A stretch of DNA of 64,000 nucleotides from an uncultured delta proteobacterium (GTDB lineage: Bacteria; Desulfobacterota; Binatia; DP-6), in assembly GCA_963815115.1 (NCBI GenBank), contig CAWFFN010000008.1:704001-768000 (forward strand), given 5' to 3'. The notes under the pieces were generated by a model. The model saw only the letters and a list, made by a program, of their open reading frames with translations, searched no databases and was not told the DNA's origin. The position numbers were made by a program, and so were the translations under genes. The stretch's first letter is position 1; every line of letters starts with the position of its first letter. This document shows positions 3,953 through 42,682 of this stretch, in pieces.

Positions 3953-4154
3953 AATCAGTAGGTCAACGCCTCCACCCGTCCATCGGTCAGTCTCCATCCA
4001 GTCACCATGCCGATGCCTGCCGGTGCCTGCCGATGGGTGAGCCTCGACGGGTAACCCTCGAATCTTCCGAGACACGGCCACCCGCCGGAACCTGCCGGCA
4101 ACCTCCTGCGTCCTTTCGTAATCAGTAGGTCGCCGGTTCGACTCCGGCGGGTGG
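3953..4154 (+). repeat. ~200-bp att-like repeat copy 1 ending in tRNA-Thr(CGT) 3' half
   Basis: 4115-4154 TTCGTAA-TCAGT-AGGTC-GCCGG-TTCGACT-CCGGC-GGGTGG; highly similar to 29763-29966 and 42512-42682. Confidence 0.9.
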
Positions 4155-4160
4155 GGACCC

Positions 4161-4400
4161 ATGACCTCCTGCCGGCGGACGACGCGGGGATCGCCGACGC
4201 GGTCGTCTGCGCCACCTTCCTGCGCTTCAAGGGACTCGAGCTGCCGGCCGTGGTCGTGACCGACTCGGGCATCGCGAACACCAAGCGCGAGGTGCGCCTG
4301 TACATCGCGCTCACGCGCGCGCTGGACCTCGTGCGGATCGTCGCGGACGAGACGACGATTGGGCAAGACCCGTTCTTCGCGAGCTCGTCGGGACGTGACC
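4161..4400 (+). pseudogene. UvrD-like helicase C-terminal fragment
   Basis: TFLRFKGLELPAVVV...LYIALTRA (SF1 motifs V/VI) starting immediately after the att repeat. Confidence 0.7.
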
Positions 4401-4429
4401 GCGGACGGCCTCGTACCCCCGTCGTCAAG

Positions 4430-4595
4430 GCACGACGACGAATCCCTCGCGCCGCGCGGCCTCAGCGAGGTGATCGTCGAGGGTGACGAAGCGAAGCACG
4501 TCGGAGCACTCGTCGCACGCTACTAGCGCGGCGGCGAGCTGGAGGGCATCGGCGGCTCGCAGAGGATGCGCGGCGAGGAGCCGTCGGGTCGCCGG
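4430..4595 (-). pseudogene. VapC/PIN toxin C-terminal fragment
   Basis: RRLLAAHPLRAADALQLAAAL..FVTLDDHLAEAARREGF. Confidence 0.7.
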
Positions 4596-4768
4596 TACTT
4601 AATCTGGTACTTTGGCATCCGCTTGGTCTCCTTGCACCGAAATGATCAGATCACCCGACGGCACCACTCGGTCCGCCAGCGTCGCCTGCGAGAGCGGGCC
4701 ACTCTCGGCTTCGCCCATCACTCTGAGCGGCATCCGCGCGGTTAGGTCATGCCATTGCCCTGACTGCC

Positions 4769-4797
4769 TGCCAACAACCGGCTGATCAGCGGCGGCC
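4769..4797 (-). repeat. attC-like 3' half downstream of higA
   Basis: minus strand CCGCCGCTGATCAGCCGGTT-GTTGGCA resembles L'/R' boxes; no clear 5' half. Confidence 0.35.
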
Positions 4798-4841
4798 GGA
4801 GCGGGACGATGCACTCGACGGCGAGGAGGCGACCAAGCAAC

Positions 4842-5162
4842 TCACGCCGCTCGCCGGCTGATCTCCCGAGCGATCTCGGCTCTCGATGCCCCGACGAGCA
4901 GGAGCGACCGCACCAGGAGATCCACGCTCACCGAGCGGTCTCCCGCCTCCATCTTGGCCACCCGCGACTGGCTCGAACCGAGTAGCTTGGCCATCGCCTC
5001 CTGTGACAACCCGCGGTTCGTTCGCACGTCGCGCAGGCGACGCGCCAGGTTCAGCTTCATCTCGACCAGCGCTGCCTCCTCGGGCTTCAAGCGCAGGAAC
5101 TCGGCCGCGCTACCCACTCGCCACCCGGCTGCCTCGAGTCGCTTCCTTTTCCTTGCCTTCAT
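4842..5162 (-). CDS. higA: HigA-like XRE-HTH antitoxin
   Basis: RKRLEAAGWRVGSAAEFL..GLSQEAMAKLLGSSQSRVAKMEAG; overlaps upstream toxin stop. Confidence 0.85.
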   Translation of the reverse strand: MKARKRKRLEAAGWRVGSAAEFLRLKPEEAALVEMKLNLARRLRDVRTNRGLSQEAMAKLLGSSQSRVAKMEAGDRSVSVDLLVRSLLLVGASRAEIAREISRRAA

Positions 5163-5521
5163 CGCACTTTCTCCTTGCTGGCTCGGTCATACCTAGCAGC
5201 GCGAGCCTGACAGGTTGTGACGACGGCAACGGGCGTAGCCCCTGTCGTCTTGCTGAACACCTCGAGGATCACTATCGCGTCGCGATCGATGCGGTACATC
5301 ACGCGCCAGGTTCTATCGCGGTCGTTGATACGGAGCTCGTGACAGCGTGGGCCGATCGCCGGCATCGGCCGCGAATGGGGCATTGCGAGCAGCTCACCCC
5401 TCTGCAGCCGGCGGAGCAAAACTCCTGCCTCGATGCGGGCAGCCGCCGACAGCGGGGGGGTCTTGATCTCGCCCCCGAGCCAGACGAGCGGTTTGTCCAG
5501 CCGTCGCGCCAAGGCGCCCAA
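5159..5521 (-). CDS. higB: HigB/RelE (Gp49-like) toxin
   Basis: DKPLVWL.GEIKTPP..MPHSRPMPAIGPRCHELRI..WRVMYRID..FSKTT. Confidence 0.85.
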   Translation of the reverse strand: MGALARRLDKPLVWLGGEIKTPPLSAAARIEAGVLLRRLQRGELLAMPHSRPMPAIGPRCHELRINDRDRTWRVMYRIDRDAIVILEVFSKTTGATPVAVVTTCQARAARYDRASKEKVR

Positions 5522-5523
5522 GA

Positions 5524-5543
5524 CTATGTCAGATCCGACATAG
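5524..5543. promoter_or_regulatory. Probable HigA operator palindrome
   Basis: CTATGTC-N6-GACATAG perfect inverted repeat directly upstream of the toxin start. Confidence 0.6.
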
Positions 5544-5599
5544 ACTCAAGCCCCCAGACGGTGGCTCCTTATCAATCAACGGGAACATTCCCGATGACC

Positions 5600-5676
5600 T
5601 CTACCATCAGGTCCTCGACGCGCAGCACGCCGTCCACGTCGTGCACCTCGTCACGCGCGCCGACCACCGATCACCA
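5600..5676 (+). pseudogene. Second ParE toxin C-terminal remnant
   Basis: ctcgacgcgcagcacgccgtccacgtcgtg...ccgatcacc nearly repeats 3775-3838. Confidence 0.6.
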
Positions 5677-5740
5677 AAAGCTCCCCGTTGACCGCACCGT
5701 CCCGACAGCAGTACTGCACCGCGAAGATGGGAAGCACGGC

Positions 5741-7216
5741 ATGACGCGATACCAGATGCTCATCGGCGGGGAGCTGGTCGATGCCGAGGGCGACCGCCGC
5801 CTCGACGCCGTCAATCCGTACACGCGGGATGTATTCGCGACGATCCCCGACGCGTCGAGCGCCGACGTTCACGCAGCCGTCGATGCCGCGCACCGTGCGT
5901 TCGACCGGACGTGGTCCACGGTGTCCGGCGCGGAGCGGGCCCGTCTCATGCACCGCCTGGCCGATCTGATCGACGAGCGCACCGACGAGCTCGGCCGGCT
6001 GGAGTCGACGGACAACGGAAAGATCCTGCGGGAGACCAGCGGCCAGGCCAGATTCGCCGCGCGCAACTATCGCTTCTTTGCCGGCTACGCGGACAAGCTC
6101 TACGGCCGCACGATCCCTCTCGATACGGCGTCCAGTCTGGACTACACGCTGCGCGAGCCGGTGGGCGTCGCGGCCCTCGTCACCGCGTGGAACTCGCCGA
6201 TGCAGCTGCTGGCCAACAAGCTCGCTCCCGCGCTGGCCGCCGGCAACACCGTCGTGATCAAGCCATCGGAGCACGCCTCGGCGACGACCCTGGACCTGTC
6301 GCTCCTGGTCGCCGCGGCGGGCTTCCCGCCGGGAGTCATCAACGTGGTGAGTGGCGGGGTCGAGGCGGGCACGGCACTGGCCGCCCACCCCGGGCTCGGC
6401 CGCATCAGCTTCACGGGTAGCGTGGCCACGGGCCAGGCGATCGCGGCGGCGGCGGCGCAGACGCTCGTCCCGGTGACGCTGGAGCTGGGCGGCAAGTCGC
6501 CGAACATCGTATTCCCGGATGCTGATCTGAAACGCGCAGTCACGGGGGCGCTCATCGGCATCTTCTCCGCGGGTGGTCAGACATGTATTGCCGGCAGCCG
6601 CCTGCTCGTCCACAGCGCGGTCTACGACGAGGTGGTCGAGGCGATCGCCCGGCGGACCAAGGCGATCCGGCTCGGCGACCCGTTGGCGCCGACGACCCAC
6701 ATGGGACCGGTGGCCAACGAGCCGCAGTACGAGCGCATCCGCCAGATGGTGGCGGCCGGCAAGGAGTCCGGCGCAACGATGGTAGCCGGGGACGAAGGGC
6801 TGGACGGCGCCGACCTGGGCCGAGGCCTGTTCGTGCGCCCGACGGTCTTCGCCGGCGTCCGCAACACGGCCAGGTTGGCACGCGAAGAGATCTTCGGACC
6901 GGTCCTCAGCATCATCAGGTTCGACGACGACGCGGAGGCCATCACCCTGGCCAACGACAGCGAGTTCGGGCTGGCGTCGGCGATTTGGACGAACGATCTG
7001 AGCCGAGCCCACACTGTGGCGCGACGGCTCGTGGCAGGCACCGTGTGGGTCAACACCTACCGTGCGAGCGCGGCGCAGGCACCCTTCGGCGGCGTACGCC
7101 GGTCTGGGTATGGGCGGGAGCGCGGCAGCGAGGCGCTGGAAGAATACCTCCGGACGAAGAACGTGATGATCGACCTGTCGGGCAGCACGGCCGACCCGTT
7201 CGTACCGTTCGAATAG
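5741..7216 (+). CDS. Aldehyde dehydrogenase
   Basis: AWNSP, FTGS, LELGGKSP, GQTCIAGSR, EEIFGPV motifs; start at ATG 5741. Confidence 0.95.
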   Translation: MTRYQMLIGGELVDAEGDRRLDAVNPYTRDVFATIPDASSADVHAAVDAAHRAFDRTWSTVSGAERARLMHRLADLIDERTDELGRLESTDNGKILRETSGQARFAARNYRFFAGYADKLYGRTIPLDTASSLDYTLREPVGVAALVTAWNSPMQLLANKLAPALAAGNTVVIKPSEHASATTLDLSLLVAAAGFPPGVINVVSGGVEAGTALAAHPGLGRISFTGSVATGQAIAAAAAQTLVPVTLELGGKSPNIVFPDADLKRAVTGALIGIFSAGGQTCIAGSRLLVHSAVYDEVVEAIARRTKAIRLGDPLAPTTHMGPVANEPQYERIRQMVAAGKESGATMVAGDEGLDGADLGRGLFVRPTVFAGVRNTARLAREEIFGPVLSIIRFDDDAEAITLANDSEFGLASAIWTNDLSRAHTVARRLVAGTVWVNTYRASAAQAPFGGVRRSGYGRERGSEALEEYLRTKNVMIDLSGSTADPFVPFE

Positions 7217-7236
7217 TGAAAGGTAGCGAGGACACC

Positions 7237-8139
7237 ATGACACGACAGGACGGGCCGGTGGCGCTGGCGGGGCTCGGGAACATGGGCTCGGCCGTCGCAG
7301 GCCGGCTGGCCCAGCGGTTCAGGGTGCTCGGCTTCGATGTCGATCCGAGGCGCCGGGCCGACGCCGCCGACCGCTACAAGATAGCCGTCGTCGAGGATGT
7401 AGCCCTGCTCGCGCAAGCGTCTATCCTGGTCCTGTCGCTGCCGACCCCCGAGATCTCCGCGACCGTGGTGCGGACCTTGCTCGCGGATCTGCCCCCGGGC
7501 ACGCTCATCGTGGAGACCAGCACAGTCAACCCCACGGACATGTGGCGCCTGCGCGATGTCTGCTCGCCCGCGGGAGTTCGCGTGGTCGACGGCGCCATCC
7601 TGTCGGGTGTCGCCCAGATGGCGGCCGGTCGATCCACCCTCCTCGTCGGCGGGAAGGCCGAAGACCTCGATGCGGCAGCAGGAGTGTTCGCAGCGCTCGC
7701 CCCGCGGGTGCTCCGCTTCGGTGACGTCGGCACCGGCATGGCCGCGAAGGTCATCAACAACGCAGTGGCGCATGCTGTCATGGTGATCCTCGTCGAGGCG
7801 GGGGCGATGGCGGCGGCGACCGGCGTGGCGTTGCACGACTTGGCGAACCTGCTGGCCGATCCCGACGCGGGACTGCTGCGCCCGCTTACGCACCGCTTCG
7901 TCGAGCGTGTCCTGCGCGCCGACTACGAAGGCGGCATGCCGACGGAAGCAGCTCGCAAAGACTCCACGCTCGCCCTGGCCCTGGCACAAACCAGCGGTGT
8001 CCCGCTGTTCGCCATCCAGGGCGCCCACACGGTCTACGAGTTGGCCCTCGCCGACGGGTTGGGACGCCTCGACTATGCGTCGATCGCGCAACTCTGGGAG
8101 GGCTGGACGAATCGCAGCCTCTGCAAGACAGCAGAATGA
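7237..8139 (+). CDS. NAD(P)-dependent oxidoreductase, beta-hydroxyacid dehydrogenase family
   Basis: GLGNMG Rossmann motif, GTGMAAKVINN catalytic Lys motif. Confidence 0.9.
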   Translation: MTRQDGPVALAGLGNMGSAVAGRLAQRFRVLGFDVDPRRRADAADRYKIAVVEDVALLAQASILVLSLPTPEISATVVRTLLADLPPGTLIVETSTVNPTDMWRLRDVCSPAGVRVVDGAILSGVAQMAAGRSTLLVGGKAEDLDAAAGVFAALAPRVLRFGDVGTGMAAKVINNAVAHAVMVILVEAGAMAAATGVALHDLANLLADPDAGLLRPLTHRFVERVLRADYEGGMPTEAARKDSTLALALAQTSGVPLFAIQGAHTVYELALADGLGRLDYASIAQLWEGWTNRSLCKTAE

Positions 8140-9650
8140 GTGACGTCTCCTTCGAGGTCGTGGTCGTCGGGGGAGGTAACGCCGGATTCAGCGCCGCCCA
8201 CGCCGCACGCGAGATGGGTGCCTCGGTGCTCCTGCTCGAGAAGACGGTGCAGGCGCAGGCGGGCGGCAACAGCTACTACACCGCGGGAGCCTTCCGCGTC
8301 GCATTCAACGGCCTCGATGACCTCCTCCCGTTACTTGCCGACCCGACGGACGCACGGCTCGCCACGACAGTCGTGCCCCCGTATCCGGAGACCGAGTTCC
8401 GGCGCGACATGGAACGCATGACCGAGGGCCGCTGTGAGCCACTTCTCACCGACATCCTCATCTCCCAATCGGCTGAGACGCTGGCCTGGCTGCGCGACAA
8501 GGGCCTCAAGTTCAGGCTCATGTACGAGCGCCAGGCGTATTCGTCCGGCGACGCGTGGGTCTTCTTCGGCGGCCTGCCCCTTGGCTCCGTCGGCGGCGGC
8601 AAGGGCCTGGTAGCGCAACACACCGTGGCCGCGATCGAGGCGGGCGTCGTGATCCAGTACGGCGCGGCGCTGTCCGGCCTGCGGCGCGATGCGCGCGGGA
8701 CGGTCGTCGGCGTCACCTACAGCGACCTCGACGGACGCCCGCACGACGTGGACGCGGGGGCGGTCGTCCTCGCCGCGGGCGGGTTCGAGTCCGACCCGGA
8801 ACGGCGCGAACGCTACCTCGGGCCGGGCTGGTCGCGCGCCCTCGTGCGAGGAACCCCGTCCAACACGGGCGAAGTCCTGGACCTGGCGGTCGAGGCCGGC
8901 GCGGCACGCTTCGGCGACTGGGGCGCGTGCCACAGCGTCGCATGGGACGCGGGCGGGCCACCCGGCGGCGGCAACCGTGACCTGACGAACCAGCTGACCC
9001 GGCAGAGCTACCCGCTCGGGATCGTCGTCAACGCGCAGGGACGGCGGTTCGTGGACGAGGGGGCCGACTTCCGCAACTATACCTACGCGAAGTACGGTCG
9101 CGAGATCCTCGCGCAGCCCGGCGGCATCGCCTTCCAGCTCTTCGACGCCAAGACCCGTCCGTTGCTGCGGCCCGAGGAGTACGATTCGCAACCCATCACC
9201 GGCGCGTCGGCTGACACCCTCGACGCACTCGCCGATCGGCTCGGGATCGACGTCGACGGGCTCCGGCGCACGATCAACGACTTCAACTCCGCCATCGTGG
9301 ACGTGCCCTTCGACCCCGCGGTCAAGGATGGTCGGGCGTCCCTCGTCGACCCGCCGAAGTCGAACTGGGCGCAGGCGCTCGATTCCCCGCCGTTCTACGG
9401 TTACGCGGTCTCCTGCGGGATCACGTTCACCTTCGGCGGAATCCACATTGACCGGCACGCCCGGGTGCTCGACTCGTCCGAGGCATCCATCGGCGGCCTC
9501 TACGCCGCCGGCGAGATGGTCGGTGGGCTCTTCTACGGCAACTATCCCGGCGGCACGGGGCTCACCTCCGGTGCCGTCTTCGGGCGGATCGCAGGTCACC
9601 ACGCCACGCGCCAGGTGAGTCTGCGTGCCGTCGAGGAGCAGCACGCATGA
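8136..9650 (+). CDS. FAD-dependent tricarballylate dehydrogenase (TcuA)-like flavoprotein
   Basis: GGGNAG, AGGNSYYTAGA, RRFVDEGADFRNYTYAKYG, GITFTFGG, NYPGGTGL. Confidence 0.85.
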   Translation: MSDVSFEVVVVGGGNAGFSAAHAAREMGASVLLLEKTVQAQAGGNSYYTAGAFRVAFNGLDDLLPLLADPTDARLATTVVPPYPETEFRRDMERMTEGRCEPLLTDILISQSAETLAWLRDKGLKFRLMYERQAYSSGDAWVFFGGLPLGSVGGGKGLVAQHTVAAIEAGVVIQYGAALSGLRRDARGTVVGVTYSDLDGRPHDVDAGAVVLAAGGFESDPERRERYLGPGWSRALVRGTPSNTGEVLDLAVEAGAARFGDWGACHSVAWDAGGPPGGGNRDLTNQLTRQSYPLGIVVNAQGRRFVDEGADFRNYTYAKYGREILAQPGGIAFQLFDAKTRPLLRPEEYDSQPITGASADTLDALADRLGIDVDGLRRTINDFNSAIVDVPFDPAVKDGRASLVDPPKSNWAQALDSPPFYGYAVSCGITFTFGGIHIDRHARVLDSSEASIGGLYAAGEMVGGLFYGNYPGGTGLTSGAVFGRIAGHHATRQVSLRAVEEQHA

Positions 9651-10432
9651 CACCGTTCGCCGTGTACGCGATCCGCTACGCCCACCGGGAGGCTTCGTTG
9701 CGGGGGGAGCACTTCTACCGTGGCGACGCCCGCGCAGCCGACCCCTACCCGATCGACTACTTCGTCTGGGCGGCCGTCTCTCCGGAGGCAACGGTCATCG
9801 TCGATGCGGGTTTCACGCCCGAGACTGCGAAGCGTCGTGGCAACCGCGACTATCTCCAGTCCCCCATGGACACTCTGCGGCAGCTCGGTGTGGAGGCGGG
9901 AGCCGTCGAACACCTCGTCATCACGCATCTGCACTACGACCACGTCGGGCACGTGAGGGATTTTCCCGCTGCCCAGGTCCTGGTGCAGCGGTCCGAGTAC
10001 GGGTTCTGGACGGGGCCGTTTGCGATGCGAGGCGAGTACGGCCACCTGCACGAACGGGAAGACATGGTTTATCTCCGGGAGCAGGCGGCCTCCGGCCGGC
10101 TCCGACTCATCGATGGCGACTTCACCGTCGTGCCCGGTGTCACGCTGCACCCTCTCGGTGGCCATACCCAGGGCCTACAGGTCGTACGTGTCACGACGGC
10201 GGCCGGTCAGGTGGTCCTGGCCTCGGACGCGAGTCATTTCTACGAGAACATCGGCAGCGACCGACCCTACTCGATCGTCGACCACCTCCCCTCCATGTAC
10301 CGGGCGTTCGACCGCATCCGCGAGCTGGCCGACGCGGAAGAGCTCATCATCCCGGGGCATGATCCGGCGGTGCTGAAACGGTTCCCGGCTGCGGCTCCCG
10401 GTCTGGCGGGCCTGGCCGTGCGCGTGGCCTGA
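9647..10432 (+). CDS. Metallo-beta-lactamase-fold hydrolase, AHL-lactonase family
   Basis: THLHYDHVG, GGHTQG, ASDASH, IPGHD. Confidence 0.9.
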   Translation: MTPFAVYAIRYAHREASLRGEHFYRGDARAADPYPIDYFVWAAVSPEATVIVDAGFTPETAKRRGNRDYLQSPMDTLRQLGVEAGAVEHLVITHLHYDHVGHVRDFPAAQVLVQRSEYGFWTGPFAMRGEYGHLHEREDMVYLREQAASGRLRLIDGDFTVVPGVTLHPLGGHTQGLQVVRVTTAAGQVVLASDASHFYENIGSDRPYSIVDHLPSMYRAFDRIRELADAEELIIPGHDPAVLKRFPAAAPGLAGLAVRVA

Positions 10433-10464
10433 GAAGACGCGACAACTGGTCCGCACATTACCGG

Positions 10465-10500
10465 TTAACTCAGGTGTCTACCCGGCCGGGGGCAAGATCA
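10465..10500 (+). mobile_element. Orphan IS3-family terminal inverted repeat
   Basis: TTAACTCAGGTGTCTACCCGGCCGGGGGCAAGATCA resembles the IS3 end at 33190-33224 (reverse complement TTAACTCAGGTGTTCGCCCGGACGGGGCAAGACCA). Confidence 0.7.
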
Positions 10501-10763
10501 GGGAGGCTGCAATTGCGAATGGGCACGAGATTCCTGGCCTTCCCGGACCCGTTGGGCCAGCGGGGCCGACCGGGCCCAGCCCGAAACGGCTGGAAAGACC
10601 CGTGGGGGGATTCTCGAGCGTGCGGCGATGGCCACAGGTCGGAGCGCCGAACAAACCTCCATCGTCCCTGGGAAAATCGGCAATCCGCAGCGCGCGGGGC
10701 CGTGTTGCGTTATCCCGTTTCTGCTACCGCCGCCGAAAAACCGTTGCCCGCAAGGGCCAAAGA

Positions 10764-10808
10764 AGCTTCCCAAGCTGGACGTCGCCGGTTCGACCGCGGT
10801 CGCCCGCT
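10764..10808 (+). repeat. tRNA-Gly(CCC) 3' half (att-site remnant)
   Basis: AGC-TTCCCAA-GCTGG-ACGTC-GCCGG-TTCGACC-GCGGT-CGCCCGC-T; no D-arm or 5' acceptor strand. Confidence 0.8.
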
Positions 10809-11063
10809 CTTCGTAAGCGCCGTGATTATGTCGGAATCCTCGACCAATTCGGACAGGGGTAGATTTTCGCGGGTGGATTCGGACAGCCGTTCAAGCCGCG
10901 TGAGCGTTCGGCAGGCGCCCCTTCGTGCGCAACCTGAACAATCGGCTCAACGTGATTGATTTCGGCGGGCTTTTTTCCGGCAACGCGATTGGGCCGGCGC
11001 GGAGCGGGTTCGTGCGGCTCACCACCAGCTTCTAGGCGACTCCCCAACATCCACAGGCTGCGG

Positions 11064-12733: not shown

Positions 12734-12749
12734 GGCCTTCCTCCTTTAA

Positions 12750-14181: not shown

Positions 14182-14736
14182 GTGACCTACTCGATGGCCG
14201 TGTCGCTGGACGGCTACGTCGTCGGGCCGGACGGGTCCTTCGACTGGATGGCACCGGACGAGGAGGTCTTTAACCTAGCCACCGACGAGGTACGCAAGGT
14301 CGGAGTCCATCTGCTTGGACGACGGCTGTACGAAACCATGCTGTACTGGGAGACCGCCGACCAGAACCCGTCGCTCGACTACTCGACGCTCGAATTCGCC
14401 GCGATCTGGAGGGCGCTCCCGAAGGTTGTGTTCTCCACCACGCTGTCGGCGGTACAGGGAAACGCCCGCCTGGCGTCCGGCGGTCTAGAGGAGGAGATCG
14501 AGCGTTTGCGAGCCGAAGCGGCGGAGGGCGACATCGCGATCGGCGGCGCGACGCTCGCCACCGAGGCGGCCGCGTTGGGTCTCATCGACGAGTATCGGAT
14601 CAGGGTCTTGCCGGTGCTGGTGGGCGGTGGCCGTCCCTTCTTTCCCCAACGCGAGGACCGGGTGAACCTCGAACTCATCGAGTCCCGTACCCTCAATTCG
14701 AGAGTGGTCTACCTCCGCTACCGCGTGGCCCGCTAG
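14182..14736 (+). CDS. Dihydrofolate reductase / RibD C-terminal domain protein
   Basis: SMAVSLDGYV, LLGRRLYE, GGATLA..LIDEY..PVLVGGGRPFF. Confidence 0.9.
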   Translation: MTYSMAVSLDGYVVGPDGSFDWMAPDEEVFNLATDEVRKVGVHLLGRRLYETMLYWETADQNPSLDYSTLEFAAIWRALPKVVFSTTLSAVQGNARLASGGLEEEIERLRAEAAEGDIAIGGATLATEAAALGLIDEYRIRVLPVLVGGGRPFFPQREDRVNLELIESRTLNSRVVYLRYRVAR

Positions 14737-16477: not shown

Positions 16478-16908
16478 TCGCGCTATTCGAGACGTCCTGA
16501 CCGATAGCGCGACGACACCCATCCGCTTGGGTTCGCGTGCTGTGGTCCCGTCGGAACAAGGTTGGTGACCGTCGAATAACACCGATTCGGTATGCACGCG
16601 GGCGAACTCTGCGAGCCCCGTGGACCGGTTGCTTACCCGCTCATGTCGCACATCACACGACGGCACGCCGACGCTGCACGTCGGATTCTGTGCCGGAGCC
16701 ACTCGCGGCCGGCCGGAGGCGGCAGTCCGTCGCGCGACCGGCCATCGACGCCACTCCCGATCGCTTGCAAACTGCTTGCAAACCGTAGCGTACATTGAGT
16801 GACAAATGCGTCGCGGGCACACCAGGAATCGCCAGGTCGTCTGACGAGAATCGTAGCGGAGTCGCGGTATTGGCGTCCCACGAGGTGCAAATGGTAGCGA
16901 TATGCTGA

Positions 16909-16937
16909 CACCCGCCGGAGCGCTTCGTAATCAGTAG
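16909..16937 (+). repeat. Short tRNA-Thr att core
   Basis: CACCCGCCGGA-GCGC-TTCGTAATCAGTAG; tandem GCTTGCAAAC x2 about 150 bp upstream. Confidence 0.6.
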
Positions 16938-17074
16938 TTTTTCATCGGCCGGGCCGACCCCGCGGGATGAAGCGTGGGGAGCGAGCGCGCTAGGATTGGC
17001 CGTGGCGACGGCACAGAGGTCGGCGACGTCCATGGTGCGCAGAGCCCGTTCAGTAGTTGGACCTGTACCGCCCG

Positions 17075-17320
17075 TGCGCATCCAGGCGCTGCGCGACCTC
17101 ACGCGCACCCGCAAGCAGCTCGTGCGCGAAGTCGCGCAGCACTCGCTGCGCATCCAGAAGGTCCTGGAAGACGCCAACCTCAAGGTCGCCAGCGTCCTCT
17201 CCAACATCCTCGGCAAGAGCGGGCGCGCCATGCTGGCCGCGCTCATCGCCGGCGAGACCGATCCCGAGCGCCTCGCCGCCCTCGCGCAGGGGACCGCCCG
17301 CCAGAAGCACGCGGCCCTGG
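17075..17320 (+). mobile_element. IS110 transposase internal fragment
   Basis: LRDLTRTRKQLVRE..RIQKVLEDANLKVASVLSNILGKSGRAML. Confidence 0.85.
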
Positions 17321-17445
17321 GGATGGTGCGTGCCCACTGCCGCAAGGGCCCGAGCGCGCGCTCGACACGCTCGAGCGGCCCCGCCGGGCTGCGCGCCACG
17401 TCGATTGCCTGCTTGGCCACGTCGATGCCGATCCATACCGGTCTC
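17320..17445 (-). mobile_element. Second IS110 N-terminal fragment, opposite strand
   Basis: VWIGIDVAKQAIDVA. Confidence 0.65.
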
Positions 17446-17918
17446 CCCGCCCGCGCGGTTCGATTCCCCCCCTGCCTCCACCTAATTTCGCAGAGGCTGT
17501 TGAGAGGCTCCCAGCCGCAGAAAGGCCCGGTTCTACAGGCCGGCGCGGCTCCAGATGGTGTGTGCGGGTGATCCTGAATCCTGCGCGTCTTCCTGGATGA
17601 GGAAGGAGCCCCGTCCAGGTGACCTGAGCTCGAACGATCGAGAGCGCCCTTGCGGCTCCAGCCGCTCGCCGGCATCGTGCACGTCCGTGGATCCGGGGCC
17701 GATTCGAACGATGCTCGCGCGCGGGAAATCGGGAGGTCTCGGCGTCCCACGTCGAGGAATCGCGCGGGGCGTAGGGGCCGATATCCGCGTGTGTCGCTCG
17801 CGGTTCCTCCGGTACGCCACGGTGAAACGTCCTTACGAGGGGCGGCGGCACGATGTTCGCGAGCTCGCTCCACTTCCTCGCTTGCCGTTGGAGCGTGCCA
17901 TTCCGGTCCCGCACCCGG

Positions 17919-28731: not shown

Positions 28732-29217
28732 TCACTCTCCGACAAGCGCAGAGGCGGCATCGAGTAGGCCGGGCGTCACGTACATGCCGACGGCAGCCAG
28801 ACGCTCCAAGACCGGCCGCGCTGCCGGAACGGCCCCCAGCCGCTTGGCTCGGAGCACGACTCCGATCGTCCCGAACGCCGGTACCCCAAGCGCGGCAGCA
28901 CAGCGTCGAGCCTCGCGGTCGTCCAGGATCGCGTGGGCGCCGGGCAGCGCCCGTGCTACCGCGAGCACCGCCGACTCTCCGGCGCCCAGATTCCACGCAG
29001 CGATCGCCGCCGGCACGCTACCCGGGTCGACTCTCGTGGCCCACGTCGCGCGCAACAGTGCTTGCGCCGCCATATCCTCACCACCCTTAATTTCCACTTC
29101 ATCCACTACGGAGACGGGAACACACACGATACGCGCCACTGATCGCAGGAGTTCCAAGCGTCCGATTCGCGACAGCAGGATAATCGGGGAGGCGTTGACG
29201 ATGGCCTGCTCAACCAT
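28732..29217 (-). CDS. DUF3368 PIN-domain toxin
   Basis: IVNASPII..LGAGESAVL..ILDDREARR..GTIGVVLRAK. Confidence 0.88.
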   Translation of the reverse strand: MVEQAIVNASPIILLSRIGRLELLRSVARIVCVPVSVVDEVEIKGGEDMAAQALLRATWATRVDPGSVPAAIAAWNLGAGESAVLAVARALPGAHAILDDREARRCAAALGVPAFGTIGVVLRAKRLGAVPAARPVLERLAAVGMYVTPGLLDAASALVGE

Positions 29218-29461
29218 CGCCCAGTTCGCGCGGAAGTTCGTCCGGGTCGACCTGCACTACCTCGATCCGGCGAGCGGCAAGCGCGTCGATGAAGTCCGCG
29301 CGGGGCACCCCCGCGATCTCGGCCGCACGCCCCTGCGACAGCAGGCCGCGTCGATACCAATCGACGGCAGCCGCCAGTCGCACCTCGGCCTGCATCTCGA
29401 CGGGCGAGCGATGTAGTGCTGCCAAGAGGTCATCTGGGAGGGCGATCGTTACGGTCGTCAT
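29210..29461 (-). CDS. UPF0175 antitoxin
   Basis: EVRLAAAVDWYRRGLLSQGRAAEIAGVPRADF; overlaps toxin start. Confidence 0.85.
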   Translation of the reverse strand: MTTVTIALPDDLLAALHRSPVEMQAEVRLAAAVDWYRRGLLSQGRAAEIAGVPRADFIDALAARRIEVVQVDPDELPRELGDG

Positions 29462-29588
29462 CCTGATCTCCTTCGCTGAGGCCGCCTGGGCGATCACGCC
29501 CGGAGCTATTGTCACCGAGCGAGTCACTCGTCGGAAACCCCTTGTAGCACAGGAGACGCGGGGCCGCTCTGCCGGGAGTGCGGTGAGC

Positions 29589-29700
29589 ATGCCAATCGAG
29601 GAGTCGGAAGCGGCGGTAAAAGTGGGTGAAGTCCTCGGGCCGTTCAAGGCCGCCGGGCCCGCAATGAAGGCAGGCAAGGCCCATACGCGCCGTGCCGACC
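29589..29700 (+). pseudogene. C-terminal remnant of AbrB-type antitoxin
   Basis: IEESEAAVKVGEVLGPFKAAGPAMKA..AH.RR matches 42115-42220. Confidence 0.6.
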
Positions 29701-29762
29701 TCCCATGGGCGGCTGAAGGCCGCGCCCGCCAGCAGCGTCGCGGCACACTCTCGCCGCGCGTG

Positions 29763-29966
29763 GAATCAATAGGTCACTGCCTCACCTGCGCATCGGTCAG
29801 TCTCCATCCAGTCACCATGCCGATGCCTGCCGGTGCCTCCCGCTGGGTCAGCGCCGACGCGTAACCCCCGAATCTTCCAAGACACGGCCACCCGCCGGAA
29901 CCTCCCGGCAACCGCCTGCGTCCTTTCGTAATCAGTAGGTCGCCGGTTCGACTCCGGCGGGTGGCT
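29763..29966 (+). repeat. ~200-bp att-like repeat copy 2 with tRNA-Thr(CGT) 3' half
   Basis: Aligns to 3953-4154; ends GGGTGGC-T at 29966. Confidence 0.9.
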
Positions 29967-29989: not shown

Positions 29990-30620
29990 GACTCGAACAC
30001 ACGATGCGGCCCCGGAACACCTTCTTGCGATGCCACGCCGCAACCCCCCCACGCACCGGAGGCTCGCCCGCTTGCGGCCCCACGAGGGGCGCACCGCTGA
30101 CCCGCAGGAAGCGGGCCTCCCATTCGCCGCCGCCCCGGAAGTCGCGGGACACCGGGACCTTGTGATCGTCGGAGCTCGCGATCGCTCCGAGGTCGAACGC
30201 CCTGTGGTGCAACGAGCAGAGGGAGAGACCGTTCTCGACCACGTCCGGGCCGCCGTGCGAGAACCACTTCACGTGCGCGGCCTCGATCCCGTTCTGATCT
30301 TCCCGACCTGTCGGTCGTACGCGCACACGGCGCACCGGTATTCGTAAGCGCGCAGCACCGCTGGAGCGAAGCCAGGATCGCGCCGCGCGCGCGCTGGGTA
30401 CGACTCGGCCGGTCGCTCGGCGACGCCGACGTCCAGACCGACCTTCGTCAGGATATCAGGATGCAGTGAAGTCGGAAGTGCTCCTCGAGAACCGTCCTGG
30501 CGACACGTGTCACGAATTCCGGGTCGGCCCGCAAGGTCCGATCCACCGATTCGGGGAATCCGCCACGGACCCCGTCCCGTCGCAGCTCGGTCATCTTGGG
30601 GTCGGTATTGCTGCGGCGCA
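29990..30620 (-). pseudogene. HNH restriction endonuclease remnant (resembles phosphorothioate-dependent SBD-HNH type)
   Basis: RRDPGF..VLRAYEYRCAVC / IEAAHVKWFSHGGPDVVENGLSLCSLHHRAFD..WHRKKVF, frameshifted and 5'-truncated. Confidence 0.75.
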
Positions 30621-33180: not shown

Positions 33181-33220
33181 AGAGCAGCGTGGTCTTGCCC
33201 CGTCCGGGCGAACACCTGAG

Positions 33221-35199: not shown

Positions 35200-35228
35200 C
35201 TCAACGACTGGCCGCTCAGCTGCGGCCG
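35199..35228 (-). repeat. attC-like 3' half (L'/R')
   Basis: minus strand CGGCCGCAGCTGAGCGGCCAGTC-GTTGAGC; GTTRRRY matches exactly. Confidence 0.5.
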
Positions 35229-35632: not shown

Positions 35633-35641
35633 CTATGGCTC

Positions 35642-35810
35642 TCACACGCTCGGCGCCGCCTTGCGGAGGACGATCGCGGTGGCGAGCCCTTGGAAGCCCC
35701 CGCCGGCGATGGCGACGTCGACCCCGAGATCACCCGCGAGTGCCGGGCTGGGAAGGTGGGGACCGTACTCGGCCAGCCACAAGGACGGTGGAGAGTCCGA
35801 CAGCGGCATG
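35642..35810 (-). pseudogene. FAD-dependent oxidoreductase N-terminal fragment
   Basis: SLWL..LAGDLGVDVAIAGGGFQGLATA then stop. Confidence 0.65.
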
Positions 35811-35982
35811 GAGCCCTCCTTCGACGACCGCACGTCGAGCACCGTCTAGCACGCGCAGCGGATGCCGTGGAGTAGCTCGGGCCTTCGCCTTGCCTCGAGT
35901 CCCTTCTCCAGTCAACCTGGGCTTTCCAAGGTCGGAGCGCGTTTCGTCAACCGAGGCTTCCGCTCGGACCTGAGGAGGACGC

Positions 35983-36687
35983 ATGGATCTGTACATGCCG
36001 CTTGCGGAAGCGATGCGAACCCAGCGCTCCATCCGCCGCCTCAAGCCCGATCCGGTCGATGATGCCTTGATCATGAAATTGCTCGAACTCGCGCTCAAGG
36101 CACCCTCGGGCGGCAACCGCCAGAACGCGGAATTCGTCGTCGTACGAGACCCAGCGGTCAAGAGAGGACTTGGGCGGCTGAACCGCGTCGCGTGGGGTAT
36201 GTACGGTCGAATCTGGAAGTTCTTCGCCAGGAACGACGCGAAGACCCTCCGCGCCATGAAGGCGGTAGACTGGGAAGCCGATCACTACGCAGAGATCCCC
36301 GTCCTCATCGTGGCGTGCCTCCGATGGACGGCGTACGGCCCCATCGTGAGCGGATGGCGTCCACCCTTTCCCCCGTTTCTCGCGGGCATCTACTACGGCT
36401 CCATCTTTCCAGCAGTGCAAAATCTGCTGCTTGGAGCCCGAGCGGCGGGCCTCGGTGCTTCGCTGACGGTCATGCCTCTGTGGAGCGTCTCGCTCGCACG
36501 TCGCGTTCTCGACCTGCCGTTGTGGGTGTCTCCGGTGGCGGTCATCCCGATTGGTTGGCCCGTCGGACGCTATGGCCCGACCACCCGGGTTCCCGTGGGC
36601 GACGCGGTGCATTTCGACCAGTACGGCAACAGGCCGTACCGGGGGATGACGGCCGACTCCCTCGCAACCGGCGGTGGCGCGGTGTAG
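35983..36687 (+). CDS. Nitroreductase family protein
   Basis: TQRSIRRL..APSGGNRQ..VQNLLLGARAAGLG..IPIGWP. Confidence 0.9.
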   Translation: MDLYMPLAEAMRTQRSIRRLKPDPVDDALIMKLLELALKAPSGGNRQNAEFVVVRDPAVKRGLGRLNRVAWGMYGRIWKFFARNDAKTLRAMKAVDWEADHYAEIPVLIVACLRWTAYGPIVSGWRPPFPPFLAGIYYGSIFPAVQNLLLGARAAGLGASLTVMPLWSVSLARRVLDLPLWVSPVAVIPIGWPVGRYGPTTRVPVGDAVHFDQYGNRPYRGMTADSLATGGGAV

Positions 36688-36882
36688 ACGCGTCTCTTCG
36701 CGTCGGCTTGGCGTGGTAGGACGCGACTTTGTCGGACCGGTCACGTTCTCCCAGGCCACCTCGGCACCGATCTGGTTAAAGCAATACGGCGACTCGATCC
36801 GAACTGTGCTTACCCGACGCTTTCGTTGTTCACACCGAGGGCCAGCACATGCGTGGCCGGCGAACGGCAGGACCCCCGACGG

Positions 36883-38823: not shown

Positions 38824-38833
38824 CCGGCGACGG

Positions 38834-39420
38834 TCAGCGGCAAACACCCTGCGCGACGAGCGCCTCGACCTCGGACTCGGCGAGCCCCAGCACGCGCGTC
38901 AACACCTCCACGGTTTGCGCGCCGAGGCCGGGCGCGGGCGCGGCCGGCGCCATGCGCATGCGGCTCATCCGAATCGGATTCGCGGTGTGGCGCGCCGCGC
39001 CGGCCTCGGGGTGCACGACGGTGACGAATGCGCCCCGCGCCGCCAGGTGAGGGTCGGCGCGATGCTCCTCCGGACCCTGCACCGGCATCGCCGAGACACC
39101 GGCGGCCTGGAGGATGGCGGCGGCTTCTTCGGGCCCCCGCGCCCGCGTCCAGGTGGCGACCCGCTCGTCGAGCACGGCGCTGTCGGCAAGGCGACCCTCG
39201 AGGGTCGCGAGCCGCGTCTCCGGCGGCCACCCCACCACCTGCCGGAAGCGCTCCCAGGCGTCATCGCCGACTACGGCGATAGCGCACCACATATCCTCGC
39301 CCTTGCACGGGTAGACCCCGTGCGGACAGGCGTAGTCGACGGCGTTGCCACGCTGGCGGGTCGGCCGGCCGGTCAGCGCCCGCTCGAGATAGAACTCGCC
39401 CATCACGCTGTCCATGCCCG
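38834..39420 (-). pseudogene. Family III CoA-transferase C-terminal fragment
   Basis: PHGVYPCKGEDMWCAIAV..DPHLAARG..APGLGAQT; N-terminal half absent. Confidence 0.75.
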
Positions 39421-39505
39421 AACTCCGCGAGTCACCGCGACCTACCCGAGCCGTCGTCCGCAAATCAACCCGCCGGAGCTCCCGCTCCCCATCGGCAGGG
39501 AACGC

Positions 39506-40477
39506 ATGCTACGGAGGGTCGTGGCTCTCGCGCCGCGCCTCGAGGGCAGCATCTGGCTCCGCCACGGACGCTCGATCGGCTTCGCCGAGTACGGCGTTCC
39601 GCTCGGCACGCCCGTGCTGTGGTTCCACGGCACCCCGGGCGGGCGTCACCAGATTCCGCCCGCGGTGCGGCTCGCCGCCGGGCAGCGTGGCGTGCGGCTG
39701 ATCGCTCTCGAACGACCCGGCGTGGGCACCTCGACACGGCACGTCTACTCTTCGGTCCTCGGATGGGCAGACGACGTGGAGGAGGTGACGAATCATCTCG
39801 GCCTGCCGCGCTTCGCCCTGATCGGCCTCTCTGGGGGCGGCCCCTACGTGCTCGCGTGCGCATATCGACTCCCCGAACGCGTGGTGGCGGGCGCGGTGCT
39901 GGGCGGCGTCGCGCCGGCGCGCGGCGACGACGCGATCCCGGGCGGATTGATGGCCGTGGCGGTCGCCCTCTCCCCCGTCCTCGAGGCCGCGCGGGAGCCG
40001 CTCGGCCACCTCGTGTGGCGTCTCTTCCGAACCCTCGGGCCGATCTCCTCGGAAGCCTTCGACGCCTTCATCCGGTTCCTGCCGGAAGGGGATCAGGTGG
40101 TGTACCGGCGGCCCGAGATGAAGGCGATGTTCCTCGACGACCTGGACCGCGCGTCGCGCCGGCAGCTGCACGCCCCGATCTACGACATCCTCCAGTTCAC
40201 CCGGCCCTGGGGGTTCTCGCTGCGCGACGTGCACGTGCCGATCCGCTTCTGGCATGGTGACGCCGATCCCATCGTGCCCCTCGTACACGCCGAGCACATG
40301 GCGGCGCTGGTCCCGGATGCCGCTTTGCGGGTGCGCGCCGGCGAGGGACACATCGGGAACCTCGACGCGGCGCACGAGGTATTGGACGCGATCCTCGGCC
40401 TGTGGGACAGGGCGCCCGGGTCGGATGTGCGAGAGGCAGGCACGACGACACCCGCGGACGCACGCGAGTCGCGTTGA
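39506..40477 (+). CDS. Alpha/beta hydrolase
   Basis: WFHGTPG, GLSGGGPY, WHGDAD, GEGH. Confidence 0.88.
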   Translation: MLRRVVALAPRLEGSIWLRHGRSIGFAEYGVPLGTPVLWFHGTPGGRHQIPPAVRLAAGQRGVRLIALERPGVGTSTRHVYSSVLGWADDVEEVTNHLGLPRFALIGLSGGGPYVLACAYRLPERVVAGAVLGGVAPARGDDAIPGGLMAVAVALSPVLEAAREPLGHLVWRLFRTLGPISSEAFDAFIRFLPEGDQVVYRRPEMKAMFLDDLDRASRRQLHAPIYDILQFTRPWGFSLRDVHVPIRFWHGDADPIVPLVHAEHMAALVPDAALRVRAGEGHIGNLDAAHEVLDAILGLWDRAPGSDVREAGTTTPADARESR

Positions 40478-41766
40478 GTCTCGACGACCACACGTGCGGC
40501 TGGATCGCGCAGCTTCCGGCGCCGCCACCTCCACGGCCGCTCGCTGGCCGCGAGCGCGCGGACTGCATCGTGATCGGCGCCGGGTTCACCGGGCTCGCGG
40601 CCGCCCGCCAGCTCGCCCTGCACAGGCCGGACTGGCGCATCGTCGTGCTCGAGGCCCGGCGGGTCGGATCGGGAGCGTCCGCGCGGAATTCGGGGTTCAT
40701 CGTCGATCTGGGCCACTTCGTCCCTGCGGTCGGTGTCGACGGCAACCGGCGAATGGCCCGCATCGCTCGTGCCGGGCTCGACCGGCTCCGCGCACTCGTG
40801 CGGGCGCATGACATCGAGTGCACGTGGACCGAGGGCGGCCGCCTGCACGGAGCAGCCAGCGACGTGGGGTTGCGAGCGCTCGAGCGCTTCCTGCGGGGCC
40901 TGGACGCCATGGGCGAGCCGTACGACGCGCTCGATGCGGCCGCGATGGCGACGCGCACGGGGACGGGCCACTACCGCGCCGGCGCGCACACGCGCGGCAC
41001 GGTGACCATGCAGCCGGCCGCCTTGGTGCGCGGGATCGCGAGCACCCTGCCGGAGAATGTGGAGATCTTCGAGGACTCGGCCGTCGCGCGCGTCGGAGGC
41101 GGGCGGCCGTTCCACCTCACCGTCGCCGGCGGCGGGGAGATCGCCGGTGACCGCCTCTTCCTCGCCGCGAATGCGTACACCCCGGCGCTGGGCTTCCTGC
41201 GCCGGCGCATGTTTCCGCTCTTCACCTTCGCCAGCCTGACGCGCGTGCTCACGCGCGACGAGCAGTCGACCCTCGGGGGGGCTGTCGAGTGGGGCCTCGT
41301 CCCCGAGGAGCCCATGGGCACGACCGTCCGCCGCACCCGCGACCAGCGCATCCTCGTGCGCAACACGGTGCACTACGCGCCCAGCTTGCGGGTGAGCGCC
41401 CGGGTGCTGGGCGCGGTTCGCACGGCTCACCGGCGCACGTTCCTCGAGCGCTTCCCGATGCTCCAGAAAGTCGAGCTCGAGTACACCTGGGGCGGCGCCA
41501 TGGGAATCACGCTGAACGGCGCCCACTACTTCGGCCGGCTGGGTCGGAATCTCTACGCCGCCGCAGGCTGCAACGGGGTCGGGGTCGCGCTCGGCACGGC
41601 AAGCGGCGCGCTGCTCGCCGACCTGGCGGTTGCCGCCGACTCGGACCTGCTGCGCGACATCCTGGCCCTGCCGCGACCGTCCTGGATCCCGCCCGAGCCG
41701 TTCCTGGGCGTCGGCCTGCGTCCGGTGTTGGGGTTCCTGCGCCGGCGCGCGCGGAGCGAGCTCTGA
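40474..41766 (+). CDS. FAD-dependent oxidoreductase (DAO/PuuB-like)
   Basis: IGAGFTG, GASARNSGF, GCNGVG. Confidence 0.88.
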   Translation: MSLDDHTCGWIAQLPAPPPPRPLAGRERADCIVIGAGFTGLAAARQLALHRPDWRIVVLEARRVGSGASARNSGFIVDLGHFVPAVGVDGNRRMARIARAGLDRLRALVRAHDIECTWTEGGRLHGAASDVGLRALERFLRGLDAMGEPYDALDAAAMATRTGTGHYRAGAHTRGTVTMQPAALVRGIASTLPENVEIFEDSAVARVGGGRPFHLTVAGGGEIAGDRLFLAANAYTPALGFLRRRMFPLFTFASLTRVLTRDEQSTLGGAVEWGLVPEEPMGTTVRRTRDQRILVRNTVHYAPSLRVSARVLGAVRTAHRRTFLERFPMLQKVELEYTWGGAMGITLNGAHYFGRLGRNLYAAAGCNGVGVALGTASGALLADLAVAADSDLLRDILALPRPSWIPPEPFLGVGLRPVLGFLRRRARSEL

Positions 41767-41941
41767 CCGGAACTCGCTCGGAGTGCGCGATTCGGTCGGA
41801 AGGAGCGATATCGTCAAGAGTGGTGGATCGCCTGAAGGACGGCTCCAGCCCGAGCTAGCGTCTTCGGCACCATCGGAGGCGAGGACAGCGTTGACAGAGC
41901 CGCCCCTGCCCCTACGCTATGCAAGTAGGACTTTCGTACCC

Positions 41942-42243
41942 ATGGCAAGCGCTGCAACCAAGGTTGGGCCGAAGTTCCAGGTCACTATCCCGAAGAACGT
42001 TCGAGATGCGGTCGGCCTCAAGGTGGGCGACCTGGTCGAGCCTCCGTGGGACGTGACGGTATCGTCCTTCGCCAGAAAGTTCTCATCGACAAGCCAGTCA
42101 GCCTGACGCGGCAACTCGAGGAGTCAGAAGCGGCAGTGAAGGCGGGGAGGGTCCTCGGACCGTTCAGGTCGGCCGGCGCCGCAATGAAGGCCGTGAGGGC
42201 CCATGCGCGCCGTCCTGACCGAAACCGTTCGCCGCTGATCTGA
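41942..42243 (+). pseudogene. AbrB/MazE antitoxin, frameshifted
   Basis: KVGPKFQVTIPKNVRDAVGLKVGDLVE, shift near 42040, GIVLRQK..LEESEAAVKAG. Confidence 0.75.
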
Positions 42244-42450
42244 TCGCGAGTCCACCGGAGGTCCAGAAGGTCTTCGGCAAGCAGCTCGCCAACCTCCTCC
42301 GCGACCTGCGCCACCCCTTTCCTGCGAGCGAAGAAGTGCGAGGAGCGCACGGGCCGCTGGTAAGCCCGGATCAACGACGACTGGCGCATGTACTTCACCA
42401 TCGAGAGGGACGCCTATGTGCTGCGAGCGATCACCCCGCACCCCAACTTG
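42203..42450 (+). pseudogene. RelE-like toxin, multiply disrupted
   Basis: PEVQKVFGKQLANLLRDLRHP..RINDDWRMYFTIE..ITPHP with stops and shifts. Confidence 0.7.
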
Positions 42451-42511
42451 CTCGCTCCCTCGCGCGCTCCGCGACGCTCGTCAAAGCGTCGCGGTCGCGC
42501 TCTCCCCCTTG

Positions 42512-42682
42512 GAATCAGTGGGTCACTGCCCTGCGTACGCATCGGTCAGTCTCCCATCCAGTCACCATGCCCATGCCTGCCCGTGCCTGCCGGTGGCTCA
42601 GCGCTGACGCCTAACCGTCGAATCTTCCAAGAAACGAGCACCCGCCGGAACCTCCCGGCAACCTCCTGCGTCCTTTCGTAAT
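42512..42682 (+). repeat. att-like repeat copy 3, cut at the anticodon loop
   Basis: Aligns to copies 1 and 2 up to TTCGTAAT (42675-42682), then diverges. Confidence 0.88.

Follow-up and report, generated by a model that had tools for sequence, protein, structure and literature searches.

A 64,000-nucleotide stretch of DNA from an uncultured delta proteobacterium (the window, C8:704001-768000, in a genome of 6.9 Mb, 70% G+C and 12 contigs) carries a repeated element of ~200 bp in which the 3' half of a tRNA-Thr gene is preceded by its own inverted copy, and the question that this locus raises is whether these units form an undescribed recombination system, as the original prediction proposed, or are the traces of a known one. 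Based on the evidence presented here, the unit is very likely an attR-type junction scar of mobile elements inserting in one tRNA-Thr gene, the scars being the seams of a 118-kb patchwork island. The process is known in kind, ordinary accretion and decay and not a new recombination system, and what sets this case apart is how long the inverted tRNA copy is and where it lies, together with a distal direct AATCAGTAGGTC and an array of at least eight blocks without an integrase.

Three units of this kind (type A) are present on the + strand of the window where they had been predicted, at 3952-4154 (c1; C8:707952-708154), 29763-29966 (c2; C8:733763-733964) and 42512-42682 (c3; C8:746512-746682), and their identity to copy 1 is 84-92%. 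When up to 3 mismatches were allowed, the probe TTCGTAATCAGTAGGTC had 3 matches in the window, where shuffled sequence would give 0.02, and none of 100 shuffles reached 3. The unit reads, in order, GAATCAGTAGGTCA; CAGTCTCCAT-CCAGTCACCAT + ATGCCTGCCGGTGCCTGCCG; GCCACCCGCCGGAACCTSCCGGCAACCTCCTG; the spacer CGTCCT; and TTCGTAATCAGTAGGTCGCCGGTTCGACTCCGGCGGGTGG, and the tandem motifs noticed earlier, CAGTCTCCAT/CAGTCACCAT and TGCCTGCCG, were confirmed in the units. The repeats of the P arm, CAGTCNCCAT and TGCCTGCCG, each present twice, are invariant or almost so in 15-16 aligned copies, and a second, direct copy of AATCAGTAGGTC lies in the P arm ~190 bp upstream. The boundary of identity with tRNA-Thr(CGT) falls exactly on the anticodon loop, TTCGTAA, from where the match continues through the 3' end, the units agreeing with the tRNA at 39-42 of 42 nt. 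The inverted copy that was said to precede this block is indeed there: GCCACCCGCCGGA reverse-complements the tRNA end TCCGGCGGGTGGC without a mismatch, and the inner part, CCGGCAACCTCCTG, fits the complement of CAGTAGGTCGCCGG at 12 of 14 bases. Altogether the inverted copy extends over 33 nt, through the T arm and acceptor strand, in keeping with the earlier remark that the dyad is longer than usual. In c1, which is complete, the distal pseudo-core GAATCAGTAGGTCA stands at the start, the inverted copy occupies 4078-4109 and the tRNA-Thr identity block 4115-4154. P arm and tRNA block are also complete in c2, so that the claim of three tRNA-half elements holds for c1 and c2 and only in part for c3, which ends directly after TTCGTAAT, the remaining tRNA half being absent. 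The unit was rejected as a degenerate full tRNA gene since its left half is the complement of the 3' half and not a D arm (the true tRNA 5' half reads GCCACCC-TA-GCTCAGTTGGTAGAGC-A-ACTGA), and ARAGORN called no tRNA within the window.

An intact tRNA-Thr(CGT) gene was located at C8:696366-696439 (+), 7.6 kb upstream of the window and in the same orientation as the array, with a Phd/PIN pair and genes without assignment upstream of it. A congener (G002) has syntenic upstream genes, then the tRNA, a 1.4 kb remnant and the homologue of C8:814897 onward, and C8:696440 to ~814930 is therefore an insertion at the tRNA. This island of ~118 kb contains six units (one inverted, one cut), a seventh that is truncated, and two remnants that belong to other att types. 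Besides the three units of the window, c4 (C8:770704-770905, +) and c6 (C8:796613-796814, +) are complete, c5 (C8:780121-780325, -) is inverted, and the truncated seventh (C8:814866, +) consists of a toxin gene and GGAATCAATAGCTCA; the statement that all copies lie on the + strand is thus correct within the window and fails for the units just outside it. BLAST of the unit found none elsewhere in the 6.9-Mb genome, all copies lying downstream of the tRNA on C8, and a dispersed repeat similar to miniature inverted-repeat transposable elements or repetitive extragenic palindromes was rejected because the copies are confined to the tRNA-Thr array. The sequence at 16909, which had been taken for a short core of the same unit, belongs to a different att variant, which is decayed and has an arm of its own. 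This type-C remnant (window 16825-16970, C8:720825-720970, +) has the pseudo-core GGAATCGCCAGGTCG and, 3 nt from TTCGTAATCAGTAG, CACCCGCCGGAG, the exact complement of CTCCGGCGGGTG; the rest of its tRNA half is eroded, with a 10-nt insertion. A further arm family, type B, with repeats CTGCTACC, is found at C8:795626-795829, C8:809262-809460, L056:7459-7658 and L020:10423-10628, and the tRNA half that stands behind the arm in the second of these (C8:809418-809460, +) is 95% identical. Type B recurs at tRNA-Thr in this genome, in a congener and in a metagenome-assembled genome (MAG), and its motif also occurs to the right of some metagenome type-A units.

The best view of what such a unit belongs to comes from the genome G006, which represents the same family but a different genus. 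Its unit, with 73% identity across 215 nt, stands ~10 kb downstream of its own tRNA-Thr(CGT) and is laid out as GGAATCAACAGGTCAG; CATCGGTCAGTCACGGTCCAGTCGCGGT; CACCCGCCGGAACC...GCAACCCACTG; a 6-nt spacer; TTCGTAAT... The ~10-kb element between the two comprises, from the tRNA, a P' flank with the arm repeats CAGTCACGGT (CAGTCACGGTTCAGTCAC), an integrase, an Xis-like open reading frame (ORF), others, and the P arm with the core. The integrase is a tyrosine integrase of 456 aa (PF00589, 2e-18) that converges on the tRNA, the Xis-like ORF matches HTH_17, and the further ORFs include several without a family and one that is TerL-ATPase-like. A second, truncated integrase to the right of the G006 unit is arranged alike, and G006 is thus also a tandem. 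The G006 element is a classical arm-type attP element and the unit is its P arm and core, that is, an attR. This supports the part of the original prediction that saw a family of att sites with arm-type repeats on a tRNA-Thr(CGT) block from anticodon loop to 3' end; the integrase sought beside the tRNA is absent from the island of this genome and present in G006. In place of an undescribed system, the copies come out as ordinary attR-type junctions of an accretion array that begins at the intact tRNA. Among 401 genomes of the class, the pattern of inverted acceptor copy and core occurs in five, with real units only in this genome and G006; the other three matches were rejected as true tRNAs with chance upstream matches, and a match in G001:C15 was rejected as a unit, being a short arm fragment with an internal deletion. 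Another att family at the same tRNA, in G010, has identity from the same TTCGTAA and a distal GAGATCAGTTGGTCC and GGCAACC, without an inverted acceptor copy.

In the mechanism that we propose, each unit joins the P arm of an element with a tyrosine integrase to the 44-nt tRNA-Thr(CGT) block from anticodon loop to 3' end, which would be the part common to attP and attB. Related elements would have entered the same tRNA gene successively, by site-specific accretion, leaving one attR per event, and every insertion would have restored the tRNA and moved the older junctions downstream. The outcome would be cargo blocks that each end in a unit, often with a toxin-antitoxin (TA) module ahead of it, and whose integrase/P' ends may have been deleted or never present. 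Since the island is without an integrase, the blocks may now be relics resembling cis-mobilizable elements (CIMEs), att-bounded, integrase-less and movable only by a helper of the same att type. The tandem motifs would be arm-type integrase sites, the distal AATCAGTAGGTC and the inverted tRNA copy could be extra protein-binding sites of attP, and the palindrome would act as duplex DNA and not as a folded strand.

If the units are junctions, gene content should change at them, and the copies found outside this genome bear this out. On the MAG contig G401:C105, the left flank of the unit is ~90% identical to that of c2 and carries the same TA pair, but its right flank is different; a type-B att lies 3.9 kb beyond the unit, followed by chromosomal two-component genes that are 65-70% identical to this genome. 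An exact-pattern scan of genome contigs for arm and core gave only this one match (MAG contig L023). In soil metagenomes, scanned with a pattern that did not require the inverted acceptor copy, 12 contigs matched; ten carry the unit, with varied left and right flanks; two are cut at the T loop. Three of the ten have, to the right of the unit, the C-terminus of an integrase that runs towards it, and these C-termini are of two kinds, one 60% identical over 78 aa to the integrase at C8:375450 and the other distinct. When 22 right flanks were compared with one another by BLAST, similarity was limited to three pairs (c5/L044, L037/L038 and, over 17 nt, L036/L056). Viral contigs gave no match to the unit or to a P' pattern of tRNA end and arm motif. 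Words of window 2500-6500 are present at 25-39% in 20 soil/rhizosphere runs, and the assembled contigs of four of these runs include ~99% contigs over 4110-10578, with little left of c1. The units therefore do delimit cargo blocks, as had been proposed: although the copies look like ordinary att sites and their hairpin has no compensatory changes, gene content does switch at the core.

The most conspicuous property of the unit is its palindrome, which occupies ~80 nt of c1 (window 4076-4156, +) and forms a hairpin when single-stranded. The 81-nt stretch folds, on both strands and as foreseen, into a single imperfect hairpin that holds the anticodon-loop sequence within a 14-nt loop, CGTCCTTTCGTAAT; in the outer stem, of 12-13 bp, the acceptor/T-stem copy pairs with the tRNA end, and in the inner stem CCGGCAACCTCCTG pairs with CAGTAGGTCGCCGG. 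As DNA, the + strand folds with a dG of -24.9 and -25.4 kcal/mol and the - strand with -28.8 kcal/mol, at z of -4.5 to -5.6, and none of 200 shuffles folds equally well; for the stretch as RNA, z is -5.3 and -6.0. We aligned the 14 complete copies (13 type A and G006), which represent 12 distinct sequences, over 25 hairpin pairs. Although 95% of the cells are paired, this is through sequence conservation alone: no pair of the 25 has changes in both partners, 15 unpaired cells and 2 G-U cells account for all of the variation, almost every change disrupts a pair, and the two outermost pairs are broken in 4 of the 12 distinct sequences. The 3' side of the hairpin is the tRNA block and hence fixed, which leaves hardly any room for real covariation, and the test cannot prove a structure; the pair-breaking changes on the free side indicate that pairing is not a constraint there. 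The 60 nt adjoining the core are almost invariant in the 14 copies from three sources, the unpaired spacer included, a pattern that fits protein recognition of duplex DNA.

One alternative sees in the palindrome a counterpart of attC, which an integrase from another locus would recombine in folded, single-stranded form, in the manner of an integron. It draws on the strong hairpin potential of both strands, on the array of same-orientation sites that bound gene blocks and on the TA modules inside the array, which chromosomal integrons also have. The lack of any compensatory pair in 25 and the loss of the outer two pairs in 4 of 12 sequences argue against it, the blocks of 9-26 kb are not cassette-sized, no integrase flanks the array, the homologous G006 unit is part of a classical arm-type attP element with integrase and Xis-like genes, and the G010 att family uses the same tRNA without an inverted copy. 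We therefore consider a folded site, which the original prediction had entertained, exceedingly improbable. The unit might instead act as RNA, with read-through of an upstream TA operon forming a stable stem or tRNA-like cloverleaf that ends or processes the transcript. The RNA fold is indeed very stable (-48 kcal/mol, z -5.3 to -6.7) and the TA genes point towards the unit in c3, c4 and c6; however, there is no covariation and no ARAGORN tRNA, a search of Rfam with the unit gave only chance hairpin matches far below gathering scores (best E-value 0.13) and no family, and no co-oriented gene reads into the unit at c1 or c2. Such a role is very unlikely.

A C-terminal fragment of a UvrD-like helicase (window 4151-4486, +) abuts the end of c1, and the c1 junction is without the last tRNA bases (GGGTGG|GGACC), which implies that the block to the right of c1 has lost sequence at its left end. 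Directly left of c2 is a UPF0175 (antitoxin-like) gene (window 29210-29746, -), in a flank that also holds a helicase, PRiA4_ORF3 and a 407-aa protein; the left end of the block that follows c2 (window 29991-30310, +, with an HNH_2 gene on the - strand) is 88.5% identical to 43172-43492, after c3. To the left of c3 stands a degraded TA module, MazE-like/ParE-like (window 41630-42440, +). It belongs to a module of ~830 bp, made up of a MazE-like antitoxin, an 81-aa ParE-like toxin and the unit, which is common to c3, c4 and c6 (84-94%) and the MAG, and whose toxin end is present again at the truncated seventh unit. The middle of the c3 tRNA block is replaced by a foreign stretch of ~440 bp (window 42683-43139, +), in which an ORF of 151 aa (42827-43282) has no family match, and a degenerate remnant of the tRNA end, TTCCGGCGGTGGC, lies at 43127-43139. 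Some ~60 bp beyond the type-C remnant at 16909, we also observed an IS110-family transposase fragment (window 16996-17571; NF033542, 2e-10; DEDD_Tnp_IS110, 3e-4).

No recombinase suited to serving these sites came to light. A six-frame search of the genome with PF00589 returned 20 matches, just one of which lies in the island, a 19-bit fragment at C8:797207-797308; PF00239 and PF07508, for serine recombinases, have no match in the island, nor has the G006 integrase by tblastn. The relatives of the G006 integrase in this genome, with 32-36% identity, are at C8:375450 (tRNA-Lys) and C7:1091728 (tRNA-Arg), and no helper element of the same att specificity was found in this genome. As no block in this genome has an integrase, any movement would need one in trans; of the earlier suggestion of an integrase in trans, the absence of an integrase from the blocks stands, but the helper was not found. 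The blocks could nonetheless be working hitch-hikers, cargo modules whose P arm and core are still functional and which the integrase of a helper element, acting in trans, would load onto the tRNA and remove again. Accretion-mobilisation would then amount to an island-scale cassette system, and the array would be a record of repeated helper visits and not of decay. All of the at least eight blocks are integrase-less and yet their units are 84-92% alike with an almost invariant 60 nt beside the core, TA modules adjoin the unit in c3, c4, c6, the truncated seventh and the MAG copy, a block end is ~90% identical in an unrelated MAG as against 65-70% for chromosomal flanks, and the integrases to the right of metagenome units are of two different kinds. 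These features would suit mobile blocks, but no helper of this att type occurs in this genome or in the 401 genomes of the class, the left ends of the blocks have deletions and truncated genes, and decay is visible in the TA modules and tRNA blocks of c3, c6 and the terminal copies. On balance we regard this as doubtful, though it deserves consideration.

Several results also weigh against the reading of the units as attR scars. No complete genome yielded a cognate type-A integrase or P' arm; of the 401 class genomes searched, this one alone has the type-A arm motif, the unit or P arm occurs in none of 24 other genomes of the order, and the arm motif CAGTCNCCAT is absent to the right of every unit in this genome. 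That at least eight blocks lack any recognisable relic of an integrase exceeds what simple decay would predict. The assembled contigs of the four soil/rhizosphere metagenomes contained no excision or circular junction and no trustworthy joint at units, a result that carries no weight either way on excision or polymorphism. The inverted copy itself lies 6 nt out of register with the anticodon stem (spacer CGTCCT, or GCACTT in G006), and it therefore cannot be a standard core half-site beside a 7-bp overlap in the anticodon loop. Finally, when the 110 nt upstream of all 20 non-tRNA copies of tRNA 3' halves in the genome, from 11 tRNAs, were scanned, only the tRNA-Thr type-A units had an exact inverted match of 12-13 nt, with z of ~-4.3 against arm shuffles.

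The runner-up of this survey helps in part to place the dyad. It is a tRNA-Arg(ACG) remnant at C7:1091632, GCCGACCTTCCTG-CTACGAAT-CAGAAGGTCGGC, in which a 12-bp inverted repeat of its own tRNA segment flanks the anticodon loop in register with the anticodon stem; the remnant adjoins an integrase (C7:1091728-1092804) that is 36% identical to the G006 enzyme, and two further Arg remnants retain parts of the repeat. In this integrase group, the free half of the attP core would then mimic the complement of the tRNA-derived half, tracking the target tRNA. The long, displaced inverted copy at tRNA-Thr is the sole feature that we cannot place in the textbook att scheme. It recurs in three att types, and its segment CACCCGCCGGA(A/G), retained exactly in type A, in G006 and in the 16909 remnant, is probably a binding site, as far as can be judged from sequence comparison. 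Full-text searches of the literature turned up no description of an inverted copy of a tRNA half in attP, which is not proof of absence. The region of the tRNA-Arg remnants, C7:1090444-1092804, was observed to contain three tandem tRNA-Arg(ACG) 3'-half remnants in 1.2 kb beside the integrase, of 398 aa.

Two further explanations of the inverted copy were considered. It may have arisen when the tRNA half of an ancestral attP underwent foldback or inverted duplication long ago, and persist as a neutral relic that is functionless now. Type A and G006 depart from the ideal complement GACCTACTG at different positions (AACCTCCTG versus AACCCACTG), as drift would give, the T-stem copy is eroded in G006 and the changes disrupt pairs, but CACCCGCCGGA(A/G) is exact in three att types with arms that, apart from it, agree at ~70% or cannot be aligned, a pattern that resembles a binding site. 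A neutral origin is a possibility of some substance that we hold only tentatively. The inverted copy could also be a working part of a distinct attP design, with a second, inverted core-like site (CACCCGCCGGA...CCGGCAACCT) 6 nt out of register, and tRNA-Thr a cassette dock on the scale of an island, serviced in trans; we think this unlikely.

Apart from its junctions, the island carries metabolic genes, a carotenoid/isoprenoid cluster, TA pairs, insertion sequence elements and a PriCT_1 primase-like protein, together with PRiA4_ORF3 and HNH proteins and the defence-type genes XPB, SNF2 and AEP-TOTE. Its blocks, of 9-26 kb, differ in content, and plain tandem duplication was rejected on this ground. 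Pfam profiles were run on 115 candidate ORFs, and the large unassigned ORFs of the island had no NCBIfam or Pfam match. Three such ORFs (420, 514 and ~644 aa) are consecutive in the first block (L001:13085-15961 and window 3-1832, -), with an unusually low first-position G+C. The c3-c4 block includes a cluster (window 53423-59107) of a MerR and B12-binding regulator, HMG-CoA reductase, phytoene/squalene synthase, a desaturase and polyprenyl synthetase, whose G+C at third codon positions is native-like (0.90-0.93). The c4-c5 block has a SNF2-family helicase and an AEP-TOTE primase-helicase (PF22548, 4e-96), a TOTE-type conflict-system pair, at L002:4020-8971 (C8:772020-776971).

Copies of the 3' half of tRNA-Gly(CCC), 95-100% identical over 29-42 nt, occur at window 10768-10809 and 43483-43511, at C8:768191-768232 and at C8:15898-15938; some sub-blocks of the tRNA-Thr island thus hold att remnants of elements with another target tRNA, which suggests a mosaic of islands. 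Segments at C8:777374-779870, 781127-782863, 768352-769182 and 784758-785524 are 98-99.9% identical to segments of C5:1.213-1.237 Mb, where another island lies at tRNA-Ala(GGC) with three tRNA-half remnants, and these matches suggest recent exchange or duplication between the islands. A RibD_C gene (window 14182-14736) is 99.9% identical to C8:376937-377641, beside the integrase C8:375450-376511 in a tRNA-Lys(CTT) array.

Among known systems, the closest are CIMEs and accretion arrays. CIMEs have reportedly been studied together with ICESt1 in Streptococcus thermophilus, and tRNA sublocation classes of integration sites are said to have been set out by Williams in 2002. Such arrays have tandem elements at one tRNA gene with direct repeats of the tRNA 3' part between them, and remnants without integration and transfer genes for which cis-mobilisation by a functional neighbour has been proposed; the blocks of our island, bounded by att repeats and without recombination and transfer genes, are alike. 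The island differs in having at least eight blocks over 118 kb with no integrase, no helper and three att types, and in its repeats of ~200 bp, which comprise the whole P arm and not the tRNA block alone. In lambda/L5-type attP, tyrosine integrases target the tRNA anticodon loop; the identity block from anticodon loop to tRNA 3' end, the integrase and Xis-like gene beside the site and the arm-type direct repeats on both arms (seen in G006) are shared with our family, whereas the 33-nt inverted copy of the tRNA 3' half in the P arm, 6 nt off register, and the distal direct AATCAGTAGGTC are peculiar to it. With integron attC sites the unit shares an imperfect palindrome (60-140 nt) at one end of each block, in one orientation, but the blocks here measure 10-25 kb, the pairing is uncompensated and there are arm-type repeats and a tRNA identity block; neither an integron integrase nor attI was found, nor any PF00589 match in or beside the island that would serve the array. 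Actinomycete integrative and conjugative elements and their defective forms accrete at tRNA-Arg in Streptomyces and leave remnants, with cis-mobilisation proposed (PMC9513070). Repeated site-specific insertion at one small-RNA gene is likewise reported to have given a multi-island region at the tmRNA gene ssrA of Dehalococcoides, a different target gene (PMC3146451).

If the tRNA-Thr elements do have a distinct attP design, the inverted site could aid the assembly or orientation of the intasome or set directionality, and the integrase-less blocks would keep a complete P arm and core that a helper could use. Should integrase or Xis bind to the inverted copy, the picture of how tRNA-targeting integrases recognise their sites would be refined, and the prediction of att sites would benefit. 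As base-precise seams of a 118-kb mosaic, the units reveal how a large accessory region arose at one tRNA gene.

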